Below are positions 29,432 to 64,000 of a stretch of 64,000 nt of DNA, piece by piece. Every line of letters starts with the position of its first letter. The stretch's first letter is position 1. Origin of the DNA: Hydrolagus colliei (taxonomy: Eukaryota); the NCBI GenBank assembly GCA_035084275.1, contig CM068764.1, forward strand, positions 7,936,001-8,000,000, read 5' to 3'. Made by a program: the position numbers and the translations under genes. The notes below the pieces were generated by a model. That model ran no database searches and was not told the origin of the DNA. It saw only the letters and a list, made by a program, of their open reading frames with translations.

Positions 29432-29775
29432 CATCATCACGATCCCTGCATCGTCCAACAGACAGAGAGACACACACACACACAGAGAGAGAGAGACAGA
29501 GACACACACACACACACACCGAGACAGAGAGAGAGACAGACACACAGAGAAGACTTAAAAAAAAACACTCGACACCGAAGACAAGAGAGAGAGAGAGTGA
29601 GTGCGAGTGAAAGAGAGTGAGGGAGTGAGTGAGAGAGAGAGAGAGAGAGAGAGACGACAACAACGAAGACGACGAAGACGTCGTCGTCGACGAAGACAAC
29701 AACAACAACGACGACAACAACGCCTCCCGAGCCCGCCCGCCCGGGAGATAGACAGAGACAGAGAGAGAGAGAGGG
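29020..29775. repeat. Compound microsatellites (GA)n, (CT)n, (CA)n, (GAC/AAC)n around MED13 exon 1
   Basis: Directly visible dinucleotide and trinucleotide runs in the presumed 5' UTR and the start of intron 1. Confidence 0.9.
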
Positions 29776-29779
29776 CGGT

Positions 29780-30040
29780 GGTGATGGATTCTCTTCCACC
29801 CCCGCACCCTCTCCTTCGCTACTGGGCTGGGTTGCCGGTCTCCTCTCGTCTCCTCCTCTCCCCCCCCGCCCCCCTCCCCCCGAGGCCGCTCAGCTCGGCG
29901 GTCACTCGGGCTGCCTTTCGCTCCACACACTTAATGGCGGAGAGCCCCCGGTCACGTGAGCCCTTCGCCCGGCTCTTGCAGTGACCCGCGGCCGCCGCTA
30001 GGGGGAGCGCTGGTGGGATAGTGGGCGGGGGGGTTGGAGG
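29780..30040 (-). promoter_or_regulatory. CpG-rich putative MED13 promoter
   Basis: CpG-dense segment upstream of exon 1 with GC boxes, a YY1-like AATGGCGG (29933-29940) and an E-box GTCACGTGA (29951-29959). The TSS is not determined. Confidence 0.6.
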
Positions 30041-30164
30041 GTGAGTGGAGTGGGAACAAGACAGCTCTGGTCCAGTCAACCTCACCCACCTGTATGTATA
30101 CTGTATATATATATATATATTTTTGTATATGTATGGGTTTATATATATATTATATACCCTTAGA

Positions 30165-30920
30165 AATAATAATCTTTGCATTTGACGCAGCGTGGAGGGC
30201 CGCGTCGCAACATAAATCAAAGTTGTTGTTGTTGTTGTAGCTCCCTTTAGCCACTAGTCCTCTAGACACTTCACGGAAAATAACAGTGATCGTTGCAAGA
30301 ATAATGAATCCTTGCATTTAATCTACGCCTTCCAGACGTCTCGAAGCGCTTCACAGAACGTACCGTGAAGTGAATTGGCTGCGTATGGATGGGCGAAAGG
30401 CGGCGTCCCCCACACAAACGGCCTTGGATTGAAATGACCCATTTTATTATTGGTTTTTTTTGTTGGGGTGGGGGGGGGGGGGGTGGAGGAGGGATTATTC
30501 ATGGAGTAAGAAGGAAGCTTGCGTAAGGTTTCGCCCTAACCTGCCTGGATTCGAACGCAGGTCTCACCCACGCTCGTAAAGTGAGTGCATCTAACCACCG
30601 AGCTACAGGACTCCACGCTGTGAAGTGAATTGGCTGTGTGTTTTGCGGGGGGGGGTGGGGGGTGAAACGCAGCCGCTTGCCTTGCGCACGGCAGCGTTCG
30701 CGAAGCCGTGAATTGGGTGACCAAATTATTATTGTTAAACCAATAGCAACTGTTATCACGTCTTTCGAGACGTCAGCGCATCACAGAAATATACTGTATT
30801 GTGAATTGATTGACTGGATATTTTGCAGGTGAAACACGGCAACCAATTGCACACAGCAGTGACCCGCAAACAGTGGTACATTTGAGTAACCAAATTATTA
30901 CTGTTATTTGAAGGGATTGA
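30165..30920 (-). mobile_element. Cluster of antisense Deu-core SINE copies
   Basis: One copy with a tRNA head (CTAACCACCGAGCTACAGGACTCC near 30591-30614) plus additional tail and core fragments at about 30165-30230, 30620-30730 and 30760-30920. Confidence 0.75.
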
Positions 30921-31392: not shown

Positions 31393-31949
31393 ATGTCCAA
31401 TTTGAGAGGCCGTACCTGCTACAAGGTTTTGACAGTTCAAGGTAAATTCTATTAATTTGAGCTAATATTTTAATTGATTCACGTCTTATTTTCCTCCCAT
31501 ATCCGTGCTGGTGCTCACTTCACCACTTGCGCTCTCTACTCTAATCCTACTCTCTCGTTCTTTCCCCATTCAGTCTGTGAGGGGGTGCTCAATCCTCCAC
31601 CAGAGCTCTCCGCTCTAACGCGTCTGGACGAGTGTTACAGACAGACCTACAGAACATTGTTTTAATTGTCATTTTCTCCCCTTTCTAGAATGTTTCTTTC
31701 TGGTGATAGTTTCGATTTCGCTCCTTCCCTCAACCAAACAATTCCTGCAGTCGGGCCAGAACATTACGTGGAACGAGACCCTCGGTAAGAAAGAAAAGTT
31801 AAGAGAGGATTTGTACGTGTGGGGAGACAGGGAGTCGGGCCAGGACTGAGGTGATTGGTGTGTATTGGCATGAACGTGAATGACGGAACTGTGGATTCTG
31901 GCAAGGATAGTGTTAGGGAAATCATCAAACAGATCAGTACTGTATCTAA

Positions 31950-31981
<32 letters not shown>

Positions 31982-34900
31982 AACTCCCTCCTTGTCTCTA
32001 TATCTGACTCTCTAGAAGTAGTTCTATATCTCTGTCTTTATCTCCGTCGCTTTCTACCTGTCTAGCTGTTTCTATCCGTCGCTCTCTGTTAGCGGAGATT
32101 GTCTCTCTCACGTCTGTCTCTCTCTGTTTTTAATCACTCTCTCATATCCTCGTCCTCCTCTTTTGTTCTGCTGAACAATCCACAAAATTAAATTGGTCAC
32201 TGTTTGAGAGACACTGCGGTGTGCAAACTAGCTGCTCGCGATTCGCCCACAAAATAAGATCCAGTAACTGCGCTTGGCAGTATTAGCTGTGGCTTTGAGA
32301 TATCTCGACAACTTGATAAGGTGCTATATCAAATGCAAGGATTATTTATGGAGTATTTCTTTTCCATCCCTCTCTCTATCACACACTCTGTCTCTTTCTC
32401 TATGATATTCTGTCACTTTCTCTCTCTGTCTCTCTCTCTCTCTCACGCCGCCTACCTATGTCTTTCTCATCTGCACCGCTCTCCTTCGCTCACCCTGTCT
32501 CTGCCTTTACGGCAATCTGTCACATTCCATCTCTCCGTCTTTCTCTTCTGTCCCGCACTCCCTCGCTCTCACTGTGTGTCTTCTCTCTTTCTCTACGGCA
32601 TTCTGTCACTTTTTATCCCTCTCTCTCACGCTGTCTACCTATGTCTTTGTCATCTGTCCCTCTCTCTCATTCACTCTGTCTCTTTCTCTGCGGCGTACTG
32701 TCACTTTCTCTCTCACTCTCATGTCCTTCTCCTCTGTCGCACTCTCTCCCTCCCTCTTTCTCTGTCTCTTGCTCTTTGTCAGACTGTCATTTTCTAATGC
32801 TGTCTCTCTCTCAGGCTGCTTACCGCTAAGTCTTTCTCCTCTATCACTTTATCGCTCGCCCTGCCTCTGTCATTATGGTGTTCTCTCATTTTCTATCTCC
32901 CTCACTTTCTCTCTGTGGCTGTTTCTTTATCTCTGACTCTCTCTTCCTCTCACTCTGTGACTGTCTCTCCCTCACTCTCTGTGACTGTTTCTTTCTCTCT
33001 CTCTGTAACTGTCTCTCTCACTCTCTCCGTCACTCTCGCTCGCTCTCTAACACTTGCTCTCTCCCGCGACTGTTTTTCACTCCGTAACTATCATACTCTC
33101 TCTCTGTAACTATCACTCTCTTCCTCTCTGTGTAACTGTTACTCCCTCTCTCCCTCTCACTGTAATACTCTCCCTCTCTCACACCCACTATAACATCTAC
33201 CTCTCTCCCTCACTCTAACACTCCTTCTCTCCCTCACTCACTGTAACCCTCTCCCTCTCTCTCCCTCACTCTAACACTCTCCCTCACTCAAATATCTCCT
33301 TCTCTCCCTCACTCACTGTAACCCTCTCCCTCCCTCACTCTCCCTCTTTCCCTCACTCTAACACTCTCCCTCACTCTCACACTTTCCCTCACTCTCACAC
33401 TCTCCTTCTCTCCCTCACTCACTGTAACCCTCTCCCTCGCTCTCCCTCACTCTAACACTCTCCCTCACACTTTCCCTCACTCTCACACTCTCCTTCTCTC
33501 CCTCACTCACTGTAACCCTCTCCCTCTCTCTCCCTCACTCTAACACTCTCCCTCACACTTTCCCTCACTCTAACACTCTCCCTCACACTTTCCCTCACTC
33601 TCACTCTCCTTCTCTCCCTCACTCACTGTAACCCTCTCCCTCGCTCTCCCTCACTCTAATATCTCCTTCTCTCCCTCACTCACTGTAACCCTCTCCCCCA
33701 CAACTCTCCATCTCTCCCTCACTCACTCTCCCCTCCCTCTGCCTCTCTCCCCCTCTCTCTAACCCTCTCCCTCTCTCTAACTCTCTTCCCTCCTTCCCTC
33801 CCTCACTCTCCCCTCCCTCTGCCTCTCTCTAACCCTCTCCCTCCCTCTCTCTAACTCTCTCCCTCCCTCTCTCTAACTCTCTTCCCTCCCTCCCTCACTC
33901 TCCCCTCCCTCTCTCCCTCCCTCTCTCTAACTCTCTTCCCTCCCTCCCTCTCTCTAACTCTCTTCCCTCCCTCCCTCCCTCTGCCTCTCTCCCTCTCTCT
34001 CTAACCCTCTCCCCCTCTCTAACTCTCTCCCCTCCCTCCCTCTAACTCTCTCCCTCTCTCCCTCCCTCCCTCTGCCTCTCTCCCTCTCTCTCTAACCCTC
34101 TCCCTCTCTCTAACCCTCTCCCCCTCTCTTAACTCTCTCCCTCCCTCACTCCCTCTCCCCTCCCTCTGCCTCTCTCCCTCTCTCTCTAACCCTCTCCCTC
34201 TCTCTAACTCTCTCCCTCCCTCCCTCCCTCCCTCTCCCCTCCCTCTGCCTCTCTCCCTCTCCCTCTAACCCTCTCCCTCTCTCTTAACTCTCTCCCTCCC
34301 TCTCCCCTCCCTCTGCCTCTCTCCCTCTCTCTCTAACCCTCTCCCTCCCTCACTCCCTCTCCCCTCCCTCTGCCTCTCTCCCTCTCTCTCTAACCCTCTC
34401 CCTCTCTCTTAACTCTCTTCCCTCCCTCCCTCTCCCCTCCCTCTGCCTCTCTCCCTCTCTCTCTAACCCTCTCCCTCTCTCTTAACTCTCTCCCTCACTC
34501 CCTCTCCCCTCCCTCTGCCTCTCTCCCTCTCTCTCTAACCCTCTCCCTCTCTCTTAACTCTCTCCCTCACTCCCTCTCCCCTCCCTCTGCCTCTCTCCCT
34601 CTCTCTCTAACCCTCTCCCTCTCTCTTAACTCTCTCCCTCACTCCCTCTCCCCTCCCTCTGCCTCTCTCCCTCTCTCTCTAACCCTCTCCCTCTCTCTAA
34701 CTCTCTCCCTCCCTCCCTCCCTCCCTCTCCCCTCCCTCTGCCTCTCTCCCTCTCCCTCTAACCCTCTCCCTCTCTCTTAACTCTCTCCCTCCCTCTCCCC
34801 TCCCTCTGCCTCTCTCCCTCTCTCTCTAACCCTCTCCCTCCCTCACTCCCTCTCCCCTCCCTCTGCCTCTCTCCCTCTCTCTCTAACCCTCTCCCTCTCT

Positions 34901-36370
34901 CTTAACTCTCTTCCCTCCCTCCCTCTCCCCTCCCTCTGCCTCTCTCCCTCTCTCTCTAACCCTCTCCCTCTCTCTTAACTCTCTCCCTCACTCCCTCTCC
35001 CCTCCCTCTGCCTCTCTCCCTCTCTCTCTAACCCTCTCCCTCTCTCTTAACTCTCTCCCTCACTCCCTCTCCCCTCCCTCTGCCTCTCTCCCTCTCTCTC
35101 TAACCCTCTCCCTCTCTCTTAACTCTCTCCCTCACTCCCTCTCCCCTCCCTCTGCCTCTCTCCCTCTCTCTCTAACCCTCTCCCTCTCTCTTAACTCTCT
35201 CCCTCACTCCCTCTCCCCTCCCTCTGCCTCTCTCCCTCTCCCTCTAACCCTCTCCCTCTCTCTTAACTCTCTCCCTCCCTCACTCCCTCTCCCCTCCCTC
35301 TGCCTCTCTCCCTCTCTCTCTAACCCTCTCCCTCTCTCTAACCCTCTCCCTCTCTCTAACCCTCTCCCTCTCTCTAACTCTCTCCCCTCCCTCCCTCCCC
35401 TCTCTGTGTGTCAGGTTGTGGGCGCCCTGTCACCCCGCTGAGCCCCGTGCAGCGGATCCTGTTAGGCCGGCCGGCCTCGGGCTCCAGCTTCCCCTGGCAT
35501 GTCCTGGTGCTGACACCTCACCGAGCTGCCGGGAGCCTCATCAGCCGCCGCTGGATCCTGACGGCCGCCCACACCCTGTACCCTAAGGGCCTGGTCCGGC
35601 GAGGCGCCGAGCGCTTGGCCGAGGGCTTGACGGTGTACGCCGGCAGCGGCAGCCTCGGGGAGCTGCTGGCCTCGGCCCCGCTCGGGGTGGCGGCCGTCAC
35701 CGTGCACCCGGGCTTCGGGCCCGAACCTCACAACTTCGACAACGACATCGCGTTGCTCCGGCTCCGGCGGGAGGTGAGGCTGAGCGGGAGCTTGTCGCCC
35801 GTCTGTCTCCCTCAACCCCGGGGCCTCTCGTCGGCATCGCCGCCGTCTGGGCCTGCGCCTGGACGCCGGGCCGGGACTGGGCCCGAGCCGGAGCCTGGAC
35901 CTCGGGTCGGGACTGGGCCCGAGCCGGAGCCTGGGCCTCGGGTCGTGACTGAGCCCGAGTCCGAGCCTGAGCTGAGGCCCGGCACCGTAGGCCTAGTCCC
36001 CGGCTTCGGCATGACCGAGGAGTACGTGATGCCGGACGCCCTGCGCTACGCGGTGCTGCCGACGGTCTCCGCCGCCGACTGCCTCCTCTCCCTGGGCCCC
36101 GAGCTGATCGCGGGCCGCCGGCCGGTGCTGACCGGGAACATGCTGTGCGCCGGTCCTCCCGGGGGCGGGGGCGCCGACTCCTGCCTGGGCGACACCGGCG
36201 GCGGTTGGGTCACTTACGACCCCCGGGCCGGGCGCTGGCGGCTGGGGGGGATCGTGTCGTGGGGCCTGGGCTGCGGGAGGCCCGGGCACTACGGCGTGTA
36301 CACCAGGGTGTCCCGTTACCTGCCCTGGATCCAGCGGGTCACCCGGGCCAGTGAGGAGGAGAGCTCCTAA
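31393..36370 (+). CDS. C1r/C1s/MASP/haptoglobin-family serine protease homologue (S195T); predicted three-exon secreted protein
   Basis: Predicted exons: 31393-31441 (MSNLRGRTCYKVLTVQ, donor CAAG|gtaaat, alternative in-frame ATG at 31375); 31689-31784 (acceptor ttttctcccctttctag, ECFFLVIVSISLLPSTKQFLQSGQNITWNETL, donor CTCG|gtaaga); 35415-36370 (acceptor tgtgtcag, GCGRPVTPLSPVQR|ILLG...TAA). All junctions are phase 1. The protease exon is very well supported, exon 2 moderately, exon 1 least. Confidence 0.7.
32360..35405 (+). repeat. Pyrimidine-rich (CT)-based low-complexity tract grading into a 72-bp minisatellite
   Basis: Almost pure C/T on the plus strand from about 33100. The unit CTCTCCCTCACTCCCTCTCCCCTCCCTCTGCCTCTCTCCCTCTCTCTCTAACCCTCTCCCTCTCTCTTAACT recurs at 34981, 35053 and 35125 (72-bp period). 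Confidence 0.95.
35415..36370 (+). CDS. Intronless trypsin-fold domain exon of the C1r/MASP/haptoglobin-like gene
   Basis: Motifs CGRPVTP..QR|ILLG, SFPW, WILTAAHTLYPK (His 35570-35572, as in C1r), NFDNDIALLRL (Asp 35744-35746), PVCLP, GFG, NMLCAG, DSCLGDTGGG (Thr ACC at 36194-36196), GIVSWGLGC and YGVYTRV..YLPWI. The C42-C58 histidine-loop cysteines are absent. Uninterrupted ORF to TAA at 36368-36370. Confidence 0.92.
35873..35980 (+). repeat. Coding 36-bp tandem repeat (3 copies) in the protease domain
   Basis: GGGACTGGGCCCGAGCCGGAGCCTGG(A/G)CCTCGGGTC twice plus a degenerate third copy, encoding GTGPEPEPGPRV GTGPEPEPGPRV VTEPESEPELRP. Confidence 0.9.
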
Positions 36371-36429
36371 CCCCCCCACCCCCCCACCTCTGACACTCAA
36401 CTCACATCATCATGATTTACTATAAACCT

Positions 36430-36765
36430 TCTAAGTTTCCTTACTCACTTATTAATTTACTTACCTACCCCCCCCACCCCCCAACACACACACCCTCCTC
36501 CTCCTCCTCATTATTATTAATAATAATCCCTCAAAACAAAAACTCACGCAATATTAATACTGATAATAAATTGGTGCCTTCAACCCGCGACTGTTTGCAG
36601 TCTGCGCGCCATCGGCTGGCTGGCTGGCTGGCTCGCTGTCTGCCTGCCGCGTTTCGCTCACAGTCGATTCCCTTCCACACGGTATTATATTCCCGCCAAG
36701 GGCGCCTCCAGACGTCTCGAAGGCGCGATAAGGCGCTGAGTTCAGATGCAAGGCGTATGTATTAC
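36430..36765 (+). mobile_element. Degenerate Deu-core SINE just after the protease stop; contains AATAAA at 36565-36570
   Basis: AAGTTTCCTTACTC, CGACTGTTTGC..., GCCGCGTTTCGC and CAGACGTCTCGAAGGCGCGATAAGGCGCT...GATGCAAGG. Confidence 0.6.
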
Positions 36766-38304
36766 TGCCATTGCTATTTGGGGGTTATCGTGACGGCTTG
36801 GGAGGCGCCGCGCAGAGCAGAACGATTTCTTGAAATGGAATCGCGGATCAACCCGAAACACTTGATCCATATTTCTTTCACCCGCCTGTGAATGAGACTG
36901 AATAACCCAGGATACTGCGCACACACACACACACACACACTGTAAAAAGATGAGCCCCCGAGAATCATCCTCATCTCTTTTCGTAGCCTCTGGGTCAGAA
37001 GGCTGACCGTTTCGGACTGACATTGGAAACTCACTGCTGGTCAAAGCTGAGCCTCCAATGCAGCACTGGGGGGTGGGGGGTGCGTTGTAGGTGCCGTCCT
37101 TCAGGTGAGATGTTTAACTGACGTCGCAGGCGATGAAAGATCACAGGGTATTTTTAGAAAACAGATTCTCTCTAACGGTGTCTTGGCCGGCAAGCTGTCC
37201 AGGTGAAACAGCTGTGACCTCGACGAGAGCTGTCTCCGTGCTGCGGGACGGGCTCGCACAGGGAGTGGCCGAAAGGGCAGGCTTGAATGCGTTATTTGAA
37301 GTGATCCAGGGATTTAGCAGCGACTTTATTTTTCCCCCTGAGGGGATTGTTGCCATGGAACTTTAACATTCACAAAGACAGCCGGGCAGGACTTTAGTTT
37401 GACGTCTGATCCAAAGGACGGCACCCTGTGTTAATGGCATTGGATTGTGTGAATCTAAAGCCGGGACACGAACTACAGGTTTGAAAAATTGTAAAGCTAC
37501 TTTTCAAGCATTTGAGTTTCATCTGCTCATATCGTCAATAATCAGAAATTGGATACTATCAGTTTAGAATTTTTAAAAATGGGAGCCATACAGTCATGTA
37601 GTCGCTTCAGAAGTGAAATCCGAGCAGGCCGTCTGTACATATTTGGCTTTTTGATTGTCTGCATTACCAAGTATGGATCAAATATAACTGACCTGTTTTG
37701 AGGAGATTGAGCAGCATCCAGAATATAAAATAATTTTATTTGGGAGTTTAAAAGCATGATATTCACAAAGGAGAAGTATGGCTGGTAACTGGAACCACGT
37801 CACGAGAACCCTCTTATTAGTAGGTTATTGCGAAACATACCCAGTCACCATTGAGACTCACGGCACTATTAGTGGTGACTCAAATTATGAATATCTCATT
37901 TCGGATCCAATCGCTACAAAATCTACAAATTCTTGTTTACCAGTGAAATGAACTGATCCAGCACATGCTCTAATATATAAAAGGATATATGAACATCAGG
38001 GGGAAAAGTACAAAGATAAAAGTGATCCCTTGTCTGCAGGGTTCAGCTCTTGACAAGGCTGCAATCCAAAAAACCTCAGCTGCAAATGCTGTCCATGTGT
38101 GCTGGCAGAACAGGGAGCCAATGATTCCATTCTTCAGCTAAACGTTCACCCCCCCCACCCCCCAAATTGTACTGAAGTTCGGAGGTCTTCTGCTTTTGCT
38201 GATAAAACATTGAAGCTTCAATTGCCCCTTCACTTCTCGACAGCCCATGCTGCACCACACTTTTGATCTTCACAAGCGCAGATCGCGTTTTAGCGGTCCT
38301 CGTA

Positions 38305-60489: not shown

Positions 60490-61188
60490 GTAAGTTCATC
60501 CAAGCACTTCTTTATTACTTTAAAAGTTACCTTTAATAACAGGGCATCGACTAATACCAATATCTTGTTAATATATTCTGCAACACGTTAGGAAACACTG
60601 ACAATCGGACTGATTTTGTGCAGATATCCGGAACAACTTTGTTTCCATTTATAACAGCATTTAGAATAATTGGTAAATCCTACTATTTATTCTCGAGTTT
60701 AACTCTTGTAGGACAGTTGTACATTGGTTAGAATGCTATATGCAATTCTGTTTCATGGACAGTAGGGTGTGATGTTGTCCTACGATAGACCGTGCACACA
60801 TGTAATCCACAAGGTCGTATCCAGACAAACGTTTGTCTTGTGGGATGTCACAGAAAAGTTTCTGAGTGACCATGGTGTGATTGTTACTATCCACTCCTGC
60901 TTGTGTGTTTCCGACTCCATAGTGGGAAAGGGGCTATGTAAGTGCACATTATCATTGTGGCAAGGATTATCGCTTGTTTACAGTGTACGGCAGAATCCAA
61001 AGTACCAGCATGGAGACCCATGTTTCTGAATCCCAAATTTTTAACCCGAATTTCCACCCACAAATTATACAATCACTACATTTTACACTTTACAGTATAT
61101 TCTGTGAAGTGCTGTGAGACGTCACAAACGTGTGATAAAGCTCTATATCAAATGCAAGGATTATAATAAGTATTATCATAATAATTTT

Positions 61189-62068
61189 CAACAACAACAA
61201 CAAATTAGACTTATAGAGCGCCTTTCACGTCGGGAGGACGTCCCAAGGCGCTGCACAGGAGGCGTGTGACCCGAACTGGGAGGGGAGTGTACGGGAGAGG
61301 GTAAAAAACGTTGGGGAGGTTGAAAATTAGGGGGGGAACAGAAGGCATGGTCGAAAAGGAAAGTCTTCAAACCAGCCTTGAAAGAGGAAAGGGAGGAAAC
61401 AAGTCGGAGGGATTGGGGGATAGAATTCCATAGGGTGGGAGCGGAGAAACTGATAGCCCAGCCTCTGATGGTGGGACGGTTCGGGCGGGGGGCTTGGAGC
61501 AAACCAAGTCCTGTTGAACGGAGGGTCCGGTTGGGCTTATAGGGGGAGAGTAAATCGGATAGATAAGCTGCGGGAAGGCCGTGTAAGGCCTTGAAAACAA
61601 GGACAAGGATCTTGAACTCGATCTCTGGGGGATGGGGAGACGGGCGAGGGTGGGGGTTATATGGTCACGGAGGTGGGTGCGGGATATTACACGGTCTGCA
61701 GAGTTTTGGATGACCTGCAGCCTGTGAATGGAGGAGCTGGGGAGGCCGACGAGGAAAGAGTTTCCATAGTCCAGCCGTGAGGTGATGTACGCGTGCACAA
61801 GTATTTCGGCAGCATGGTGGGTGAGATAGTTGCGGAGCCTTGCAATGTTGCTCAGGTGGAAGGCGGTGCCGGTCAAGGCACGGATGTGGGGGAGGAAGGA
61901 GAGTTTATGGTCGAACGTGATGCCGAGGTTCCTGACTGGCTTTGTGAGGTGGAGAATACAGCCTTGGATGTTGAGGCTGGCAGCGCCCGATGTGCGGAGG
62001 CGCTGGCTTGAACTAATCAGGAGGGCCTCGGTCTTGCTCACGTTCAATTGGAGGAAGTTGTCCCTCGT
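61189..62068 (-). mobile_element. 5'-truncated young L2 LINE (RT C-terminus and 3' tail)
   Basis: ORF 61367-62080 (NFLQLNVSKTEALLI..VRNLGITFD..LSF..HI..HAYITSRLDYGNS..LQVIQNSA) and ORF 61188-61502 (AISFSAPTLWNSIP..SLSSFKAGLKTFLF) are L2 ORF2 motifs separated by a frameshift; the element ends in (TTG)n. Confidence 0.9.
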
Positions 62069-64000
62069 CCCTCCCCACAAATATACAGTGTATTTACTTT
62101 ACTGTATATTCTGTGAAGCGCTTTTAAGTTCTAGAAGTTTAATATAAAAACATTTATACTCTGCGGATTACAATGTAGACATTGTTAGGTCACTTTGCAA
62201 AGTTGCAAGACTTAGCTGCATTTGTACTTCAGTTTATATATTGGTTATCTGCTTATGTATACTTAAAATATAAAACTTAACAATGTAGATCACAGACATC
62301 GACCCCTCCCCCGCCCCATTTATAGGAATAGAAAACAATTTCTGAGGCCTATAAAAGCTATTGATGCATTTAACAGTGTATTGAAAATTTTGGTGTTAGT
62401 GTGCCAGTCTTATCACACAATGCTATACGTATTGCACAAAGTTTCCTTACAACATTGCTAATAAATTAAGAAGGACTTTAGTTACAAATTTCTGGAGACT
62501 GGCAGTCTGTTACAATGGTAGTCATAGCTGTGTCTGAGGGTAATTTATAGTGATGGGATGAAGAAAGTTGCGGATTTGTATTACACTCCCTCACCTGACA
62601 CTGCATTTGATCCCTTTACTGTTGATTGACATTTTGAATGGGCCCTTTGAAACAAGCTCCATCTTAATTAAAATGTTCACTAACTTAGCTGCGATCAGTG
62701 AATGTCTGCGATAAATATTGAATCAAGTTCACCTGCTGGTTACAGAGGGTGCATAAACAGCTGCTTTGTGTCGTGTATCATGAGATCACCAGAGGAGAGC
62801 ACCACTCTGTAAGAAAAGGAAACGAAAGAATAGATGCTGAGTGATAGGATTGCAAACTCACCTCACTTTTGATATCTTAGTCAGATGTGTTAGTGTGAGA
62901 TTTCACACGGTGGGAATTCAGAACCCTGGTCATTCAGGTGCTTTTGTAACTGTATGAAGTGGAAAAAGTTTTTATTTTATGGCACTCTTTCTCCCTACTC
63001 TATTTCACTTTCAATTAGAGTTAGAGAAAGTCCTTGGAGAACATAGCTGTTATCTGTTCAAATCCAATAGAAATAACACTCAGCATAGAGGATGATTGTG
63101 GACTGACCATTATTTTCTGCGCTCCCAGTTTTTTTTCAAAAGGTTCAGGTTGCTATAAGCTTTCAAAATCTTTTTTTTCTAAAAGAAGTTGAAGAAATGG
63201 TAAGCATACTTGAGCTTAATGAGCATACGTTGCAGAAATGTAGATAGTGCTTTCCTTATATTACAAAAACTCTAAAGATATTAATTTCATCCTTCACCAA
63301 CGGCAAACTGTTTTCTGCCCACCTGGTCTTCAGATAAGATAAAACATCATGAGTGAGTGACAAGCAGCATTCAGTAAATGAGCAGTGTGGAGATCAGATC
63401 CTCGTGGATGAAGAAGGGAGAGAGTCAGCTTTTATAGTTTGGCTTTACCACTGCTAGAGTAATTGATAGAATTCAAATTAAGAATGTAACAAATCTGGCA
63501 ATTTCAGTCTTTGCACTTCATTGCCACACGGACCAAGAAAGTCTCAAAGCTAGTTTGAAAAAATACTGGCAGAGATGGTAAAAATTGTGAGTGGGGTGGG
63601 GGGAGGGGGTTACAGACTGCAATTTTTGCTATCCTGGGAAGAGGACAATAAATAAGTGAAGTAGACTGGAGTGAATCTGTCAGCAGTTTACACAGGCACA
63701 AACAATCAAGCTGCGACTGACCCAGGCCAACAGTTAAAATTGCATAAAGTTCGAGGTATGAAAGAACTTGAACATTGTCATTGGTGCAATAGAGCGTGAA
63801 GCATTTTATAACTTTTAACAGATTAACAGGGGACTACAGGTCATTTGGGGAAACAATGTTTATGATTGATATGTTGGATCAAACAGACCTCAGGCTGGAG
63901 ATTTCTCTGTCTGGACTGAATGGTTTCTATGTTTTTATCTTGCAACCATGAGGCAGACATAACCACAAATATTGGACTCAAAAATCTAATTATAAATAGA

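Follow-up and report, generated by a model that had tools for sequence, protein, structure and literature searches.

A C1r-related trypsin-fold protein of cartilaginous fishes with threonine at the position of the catalytic serine

Proteases of the trypsin fold rely on serine, not threonine, at position 195, and why they do so is a standing question. Some of their relatives have left catalysis altogether: S1 pseudoproteases, including haptoglobin, azurocidin and the insect clip-domain homologues, descend from active S1 proteases, keep the fold and often the activation cleavage, and act by binding. Haptoglobin has lost both His57 and Ser195. C1r-LP, a mammalian Ser protease, retains CUB and CCP modules. 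Its reported activity includes the cleavage of prohaptoglobin after PVQR (PMC5856381, in the part accessible). The available text of a 2021 study (PMC8695361) blames the Cys42-Cys58 disulfide for hindering Thr195, and describes a partial rescue of S195T thrombin and a marginal one of S195T trypsin when this disulfide is removed. According to the accessible part of a 2026 preprint (bioRxiv 10.64898/2026.10.13.758922), the activity of S195T thrombin is lowered and not abolished, and in thrombin simulations the Thr195 methyl packs against Val213 and Ser214. Both sources state that a trypsin-fold protease with Thr195 has yet to be documented in nature (PMC8695361; bioRxiv 10.64898/2026.10.13.758922). 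A natural precedent has been claimed in human TSP50, described in one study as a threonine protease whose dead mutant is T310A (PMC3344824).

The DNA considered here, referred to as the window, is a stretch of 64,000 nucleotides from the chimaera Hydrolagus colliei, whose genome measures 1.0 Gb. It carries, on the + strand and between MED13 and INTS2, both recognized by Pfam matches on the - strand, a gene lying head to head with MED13 and encoding a trypsin-fold domain with Thr at position 195. Genome searches, in which the best candidates were scored, returned one copy of it, and the same genome holds a separate full-length Ser195 C1r-like gene (L002), sister to a Callorhinchus milii protein with support of 100/100 in a 30-row tree. 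All features described below lie on the + strand, residues follow the chymotrypsinogen numbering, placed through motifs and alignment to human C1r, and counts of clade rows refer to the orthologue clade presented further on.

A single exon (35415..36370) encodes a Cys1 linker, the activation segment and a complete trypsin-fold domain, 317 amino acids to the stop. Its frame runs from a splice acceptor AG at 35413-35414 to a TAA at 36368-36370 with no stop between, and 195 bases past the stop lies AATAAA (36565..36570), a candidate polyadenylation signal and the sole A[AT]TAAA match in 36371-38000. The activation site, Arg15/Ile16-Leu-Leu-Gly19 preceded by PVQ, occupies 35453..35467; Arg15, Ile16 and Gly19 are invariant in all 12 clade rows reaching the site (12/12), and Leu18 is found in the window protein only, among clade rows. 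Ala42 stands where trypsin and thrombin have Cys42 (35525..35527; Ala in 13/13 clade rows), and the catalytic base His57 (35570-35572; His in 13/13) has Thr58, not Cys58, as its neighbour (the pair at 35570..35575), at a position that is T, I, V or A in the clade and Cys in none of its members. Asp102 (35744..35746), Asp189 on the floor of the S1 pocket (36176..36178) and Ser214-Trp215-Gly216 (36257..36265, with the Ser214 codon at 36257-36259) each recur in 13/13 clade rows, Asp189 predicting cleavage or binding after Arg or Lys. At 36194..36196 the catalytic Ser is replaced by Thr (ACC), as it is in 13/13 orthologues. Gly198 (36203..36205) is fixed in the clade (12/12 rows and the window) and rare elsewhere, being present in 1/86 Ser195 family domains and 17/617 Ser195 domains overall, and is possibly a co-adapted site. 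The window protein has exactly six Cys. Between the two barrels sits an insertion rich in Pro, Glu and Gly with an in-frame 36-nt tandem repeat of 3.1 copies (35857..35969), which has no counterpart in other orthologues, the shark proteins XP_038630194.1 and XP_067883114.1 among them; over a 76-base stretch of the repeat, the contigs of two further organisms (B and C) count 40 letters, one unit fewer, with the frame kept.

Read codon by codon, 36176-36205 is GAC TCC TGC CTG GGC GAC ACC GGC GGC GGT, which gives DSCLGDTGGG with ACC at 36194-36196. This agrees with a preliminary description of the locus made from the DNA letters, whose account of His57, Asp102, Asp189, SWG 214-216, the six cysteines, the open reading frame and the activation site R/ILLG also stood up. 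The description had further placed ACC one base from AGC, and since AGT or AGC encodes Ser195 at 9/11 other loci checked, the genome's C1r among them, the Thr codon is indeed a single base off the family codon. Its statement that all disulfides are intact is correct relative to C1r and does not extend to the Cys42-Cys58 bridge that trypsin and thrombin have beside Ser195, replaced here by Ala42 and Thr58; the absence of this bridge had escaped it.

It had also left room for an assembly error, a private allele or orthologues that all carry Ser, and none of these is what the data contain, contigs of three other studies keeping ACC and 13/13 orthologues having Thr. The codon is unchanged in a contig that a separate study obtained from another sample of this organism (X5, depth about 20) and in contigs of two other organisms (X6; X7), of which the X7 contig has a depth of 2 and stops 6 bases beyond codon 195; runs X1-X4, perhaps the source of the window DNA, were excluded from this comparison. 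The independent contigs and the orthologues together dispose of an error or private allele at this position. An apparent frameshift in organism B was likewise set aside: GATC is inserted behind 35553 and a loose end lies at 36331, both at GATC sites, and both resemble proximity-ligation junctions, so that the chemistry of Hi-C leads us to read them probably as ligation products and not as alleles.

Upstream of the protease exon, 31689..31784 (+) is a candidate exon that would encode a signal-peptide-like hydrophobic segment and a short linker with two N-glycosylation sequons. Its borders read AG...GTAAGA, its 31 codons are open, its phase 1 end fits the protease exon, and its peak hydropathy of 3.17 compares with 2.6-3.7 in shark signal peptides; none of the listed organism B differences falls inside it, with 3/12 substitutions of that contig unlisted. 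The start codon would sit on an exon further upstream, which was looked for and not found. Among the rows listed for two single-cell runs of organism B (27-30% of reads examined) there was no splice joint, and the single-cell data of this organism reach a depth of <3 in the unique upstream stretch, while in X8 the end of the protease exon is covered by 1 read. The orthologue accessions are absent from a chain catshark skin proteomics supplement.

The shark proteins have the same compact design. Complete models of 336-346 aa consist of a signal peptide, a short linker and the protease domain, with Trypsin as the only Pfam domain, and have 65-66 residues before Cys1, with a hydrophobic N-terminus and one to three N-glycosylation sequons in the linker. 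The Pristiophorus model (308 aa) has no signal, and the Heptranchias model (572 aa), in which a Ser195 protease domain is joined in front, probably represents two adjacent genes merged by annotation. The CUB-EGF-CUB-CCP-CCP heavy chain of C1r is absent, the window containing no CUB, EGF or CCP exons: in tblastn comparisons, seven CUB/CCP-bearing relatives match nothing but the protease exon in the window, and at the C1r locus of the genome they also match several exons further upstream. Among the best 120 of 368 longer proteins, none exceeds 47% identity, which the tool's own note treats as weak evidence.

For the protease domain itself, Pfam assigns the window protein to Trypsin (PF00089, E 7e-39), and its best solved relative is human C1r (E 4.6e-49). 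An AlphaFold model built on a 107-sequence alignment reaches a pLDDT of 85.4 and a pTM of 0.83, with low values in the repeat insertion (53-56 over the block) and the uncut activation loop, and has target-normalised TM scores of 0.92-0.93 to the C1r and MASP-2 catalytic chains. A protease domain on one exon, the absence of Cys42-Cys58 and a codon 195 of AGY type, the traits of the C1r/C1s/MASP group, are all found here. The protein is real and conserved, and it is folded as far as the predicted structure can tell.

Thirteen orthologues were recovered, from 12 shark species and one further record (63% identical), and all read GDTGG. The first search had 7 close matches among 59 listed, and the total of 13 came through more searches and cluster look-ups; one of them is a fragment beginning after His57. 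The sharks span six orders, with Heptranchias, Pristiophorus, Carcharodon and Scyliorhinus among the genera, and no ray, skate or bony-fish orthologue was among the matches returned. The lineage would go back to the split of chimaeras and sharks, placed at 300-420 million years ago in the accessible part of PMC6238376. In databases the members go under C1r-like, haptoglobin-like or MASP2-like names. A metagenome scan gave distant proteases only, at 25-47% identity and with Ser in 72/73 motifs, and the ESM Atlas generic trypsin clusters only.

The Thr195 proteins group as a single clade in two trees: a quick one of 47 rows joins all 13 with SH-aLRT 100, and a careful one of 30 rows, which retained 6 of them, does so with 100/99. 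The clade falls outside the C1s/MASP2/MASP3 branch (93/97), and its placement as sister of cartilaginous-fish C1r receives only 24/69. C1r is the best match in every search of solved-structure sequences. Judged from sequence, these proteins are probably offshoots of C1r, strongly supported as one clade.

How far the catalytic apparatus has been maintained can be gauged against other proteases. The window protein has His57, Asp102, the oxyanion-hole motif, Asp194, Arg15-Ile16 and Asp189, and lacks the nucleophile Ser195. In the clade, whose tree adds up to 3.4 changes per column, 101/272 columns are invariant, including Arg15, Ile16, Gly19, Ala42, His57, Asp102, Asp189, Gly193, Asp194 and Thr195, and further Gly198, Ser214, Trp215, Gly216 and Gly226; 4/13 Thr-majority columns are invariant. 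The further record is 47-51% identical to five sharks, and chimaera C1r is 42-43% identical to three elasmobranch C1r; by this sequence measure the Thr195 clade is as conserved as active C1r. We compared about 730 complete protease domains, which are search matches and not a random sample, with kin counted repeatedly and the window protein outside the count, its match being split by the insertion. All nine supporting residues are intact in 12/12 complete clade domains versus 0/15 Thr195 domains outside the clade, where His57 is kept in 2/15 and Cys42-Cys58 in 14/15. Family domains with Gly, Ala, Val or the like at 195 keep all nine residues in 9/17 cases and His57 in 10/17, and non-Ser/Thr-195 domains overall keep His57 and Asp102 in 37/70. 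An intact machinery is thus not diagnostic of activity, because those 9 of 17 relatives are certainly dead; nor does a fixed non-Ser residue prove it, because Gly195 is fixed in all three domains (3/3) of a dead C1s-like paralogue, from this genome and two rays, that has lost His57. Thr is a common state of dead domains, one base from AGC. The window's own branch looks relaxed, with Leu18, Pro139, Phe141 and the insertion as its oddities; 6/10 differences between the window and organism B are non-silent, none of them in a catalytic motif and too few for a rate.

Two explanations would detach the locus from the question of catalysis. An artefact, a private allele or a decaying pseudogene would be suggested by the start codon and spliced read that were not found in this genome, and, along the branch of the window protein, by the repeat insertion and a number of odd residues, but ACC persists in contigs of three other studies, 13/13 orthologues have Thr and open frames, conservation equals that of active C1r, and the repeat-unit differences keep the frame; we regard this explanation as hardly credible for the window, and for the whole clade it is already refuted. 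A haptoglobin-lineage protein, being either the cartilaginous-fish state of haptoglobin or a parallel to it, would bind haemoglobin and be part-way to the loss of its triad. NCBI automatic names call four members haptoglobin-like or haptoglobin-related, yet a separate nurse-shark haptoglobin entry (H9LEQ0) exists; the searches of this genome, with the best candidates scored, gave no separate haptoglobin exon. The PVQR activation segment is the human prohaptoglobin site (PMC5856381, available part), whereas the invariant YPK after His57 is common to human C1r. One shark member scores 155.5 bits on a 266-aa haptoglobin chain versus 135.1 for a ray C1r, but the protease chain of a shark member alone gives 153 bits to C1r and 130 to haptoglobin beta, the clade profile gives 237 to C1r, 217 to MASP-2 and 184-190 to haptoglobin, and haptoglobin is outside the best 60 for the window protein. 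His57, moreover, is invariant in the clade, whereas its loss together with that of Ser195 is the haptoglobin trait. The idea in the preliminary description of an intermediate between protease and haptoglobin finds no support, C1r being the closest solved relative in every search. The Thr195 protein is nearer C1r than haptoglobin in these comparisons, and a haptoglobin link is disfavoured and in our view very improbable, as judged from these scores and residues and not from a tree with true haptoglobins. Two other loci considered as haptoglobin, L004 and L005, were rejected, their best solved relative being C1s (E 3e-53) with haptoglobin outside the best 60. An AU test (p 0.014) rejects a union of the clade with the dead C1s-like domains and has no bearing on haptoglobin.

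The choice then lies between the two options that the preliminary description had named, a pseudoenzyme and a rare threonine enzyme; it chose the right pair, but its ranking took no account of the absent Cys42-Cys58 bridge. A non-catalytic binder, which we hold to be a serious contender at somewhat below an even chance, would use Thr195 as an off-switch, and selection would preserve its fold together with its S1 pocket and activation cleavage, so that Arg-containing loops can be bound. With a similar, slightly sub-even likelihood its role might be that of a decoy, a cofactor or an inhibitor for proteases of complement or clotting, and whatever activity is left would be incidental. That the whole machinery is kept in 9 of 17 certainly dead family domains, and that the C1r/C1s family readily yields dead copies, are consistent with this, but the dead C1s-like paralogue lost His57 and the Thr195 clade did not. 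S195T cripples trypsin and thrombin (PMC8695361, available part), and His57 is gone from 13/15 Thr195 domains that lie outside the clade; the sole structural obstacle named for Thr is, however, absent here. None of 14 sequences has reverted to Ser though it is one base away, which fits selection against activity, but His57 and Thr195 have also stayed invariant over 3.4 changes per column though Thr to Ala is one base. Position 192 changes fast and is small or hydrophobic (L, V, A, G), and the domain is cationic, with a net charge of +5 to +12 versus -8 to +6 in C1r/C1s/MASP-family rows, as expected of a surface that binds polyanions. Since a protein that only binds could afford to lose His57 or Thr195, their joint persistence favours an enzyme, and with the named obstacle to Thr absent as well, the balance tips in that direction.

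The preferred reading, to which we give about an even chance, is that the Thr195 protein is a secreted, slow, Arg-specific protease with a Thr nucleophile, a cut-down relative of C1r. The absence of Cys42-Cys58 is what raises a threonine enzyme to about even or slightly better. Ala42 occurs in 27/87 Ser195 relatives and the loss of the bridge is ancestral to the family, and hence this loss permits Thr but does not signal compensation. Both Val213 and Ser214 are unchanged here. By analogy, the only partial rescue of the engineered enzymes counts against a natural Thr protease. In the scheme that we propose, the protease exon of C1r would have been duplicated before the chimaera-shark split, with a signal peptide and linker alone retained, and AGC would have changed to ACC in a family already without Cys42-Cys58, which would leave room for the Thr methyl. 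Cleavage at PVQR/I would then leave two chains held by Cys1-Cys122, and an Ile16-Asp194 salt bridge would shape the S1 pocket. His57 would activate the Thr195 hydroxyl, and at a small number of Arg-X sites the outcome would be slow turnover or an acyl-enzyme that persists for long. Lacking CUB and CCP modules, the protein would have no entry to the C1 complex, and its low intrinsic speed may act as a safety catch. Zymogens of its own family would be the first substrate candidates, because C1r-LP, another shortened C1r duplicate, cleaves prohaptoglobin at PVQR. A fully adapted threonine protease, with a site rebuilt around Thr195 (no Cys42-Cys58, Gly198), efficient cleavage of Arg-X and no gain from Ser, appears unlikely to us; if true, the enzyme would be 300-420 million years old, and cartilaginous fishes would have a branch of complement or plasma-protein processing of their own that does not depend on C1.

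Whichever reading holds, the protein is a real, ancient and undescribed variant of the C1r family; we found no published description of Thr195 C1r offshoots in a search whose coverage mostly leaves subscription papers outside, including a 2018 shark haptoglobin study. With it, the complement genes of cartilaginous fishes gain a member that has gone unrecognised, hidden under automatic names. Thr195 is fixed in 14/14 sequences, in the disulfide-free background that engineers built for Thr, and the clade makes the use of Ser instead of Thr directly testable. If active, it would provide a natural threonine protease together with its compensating residues; if inactive, binding alone would have sufficed to preserve an intact His-Asp-Thr triad over hundreds of millions of years.

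Among known systems, C1r is closest, leading the solved relatives in sequence comparisons and ranking with the best in fold, and sharing Asp189, the Cys1-Cys122 link, the single-exon protease domain, the AGY-derived codon 195, the absence of Cys42-Cys58 and the TAAHTLYPK motif; the protein described here differs in Thr195, the replacement of Gln192, Gly198 and the lack of CUB-EGF-CUB-CCP-CCP exons. Haptoglobin is set apart by the clade's invariant His57 and its hydroxyl at 195, and C1r-LP (C1RL) by the protein's Thr195 and its lack of CUB and CCP modules. C1r-LP is nonetheless alike in being a shortened C1r duplicate, and its target PVQR is the Thr195 protein's own activation site (PMC5856381, in the accessible part). 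TSP50/PRSS50 of mammalian testis, going by the available text, also combines the trypsin fold with a His-Asp-Thr triad (PMC3344824), but the clade appears to stem from C1r, and TSP50 was not among the named matches, its kinship being seen in the fold alone. The engineered C42A/C58A/S195T trypsin and thrombin share Ala42, a non-Cys residue at 58, Thr195, His57, Asp102 and Asp189; as far as the accessible part of PMC8695361 goes, those are laboratory-made mutants with partial rescue, whereas the chimaera and sharks present a natural clade in which the same combination, plus Gly198, has apparently been fixed since their lineages split.

The gene encoding the Thr195 protein, an offshoot of C1r, lies in the window between MED13 and INTS2, with C1r on another contig, unlike the arrangement suggested for Heptranchias, where the predicted protein P0064 carries a Ser195 C1r-like domain joined in front of the Thr195 protein, a fusion that suggests adjacency of the two genes in that shark's genome sequence. 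Between the start of MED13 (minus strand) and the Thr195 gene is a short GC-rich stretch (29450-30050). It has a strong splice donor at 30041, together with a short upstream open reading frame; going by these sequence features, the stretch is possibly a shared bidirectional promoter with a non-coding first exon. It is followed by a cluster of high-copy, SINE-like short repeats (30180-30900; contig depth up to 1.6 million) and, immediately 5′ of the protease exon, by an almost pure C/T-rich tandem repeat of about 2.2 kb (33200-35400). Within the exon itself, a coding tandem repeat with a 36-nt unit (35857-35969) varies in copy number among organisms, with B and C, two others whose contigs span this repeat, having one unit fewer, and the frame is always kept. 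In contigs from run X6 of organism B, frameshifts are imitated by duplicated GATC sequences and by loose ends that fall on GATC sites; these are probably proximity-ligation junctions. Elsewhere in the window, reading frames at 61188-62098 (minus strand) resemble, by eye, a degenerate LINE reverse-transcriptase fragment and have no Pfam match.

The C1 proteases both look unusual in this genome. The full-length C1r-like gene L002 (G000:C48:1282411-1283226, plus strand; motif ANTCQGDSGG) retains Ser195 but has Asn at position 189, where the Callorhinchus orthologue has Asp, and its S1 specificity may be altered, judging from this residue. Two C1s-like domains, L004 and L005 (G000:C30:39358-40146 and 114932-115720, both minus strand), are dead (Thr57, Gly195), and searches of this genome, in which the best candidates were scored, found no active C1s exon. 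These copies, 75 kb apart, have the same protein sequence; CUB and EGF exons lie upstream of the second (L005), and an orthologue is present in rays, where it adjoins an active C1s.

Thr195 domains also occur naturally outside the clade. The teleost C1r-like domain of P0272 (Chanos c1r) has lost His57; P0277 and P0296 retain His57, Asp102 and Cys42-Cys58, and all three are useful contrasts to the Thr195 protein of the window.
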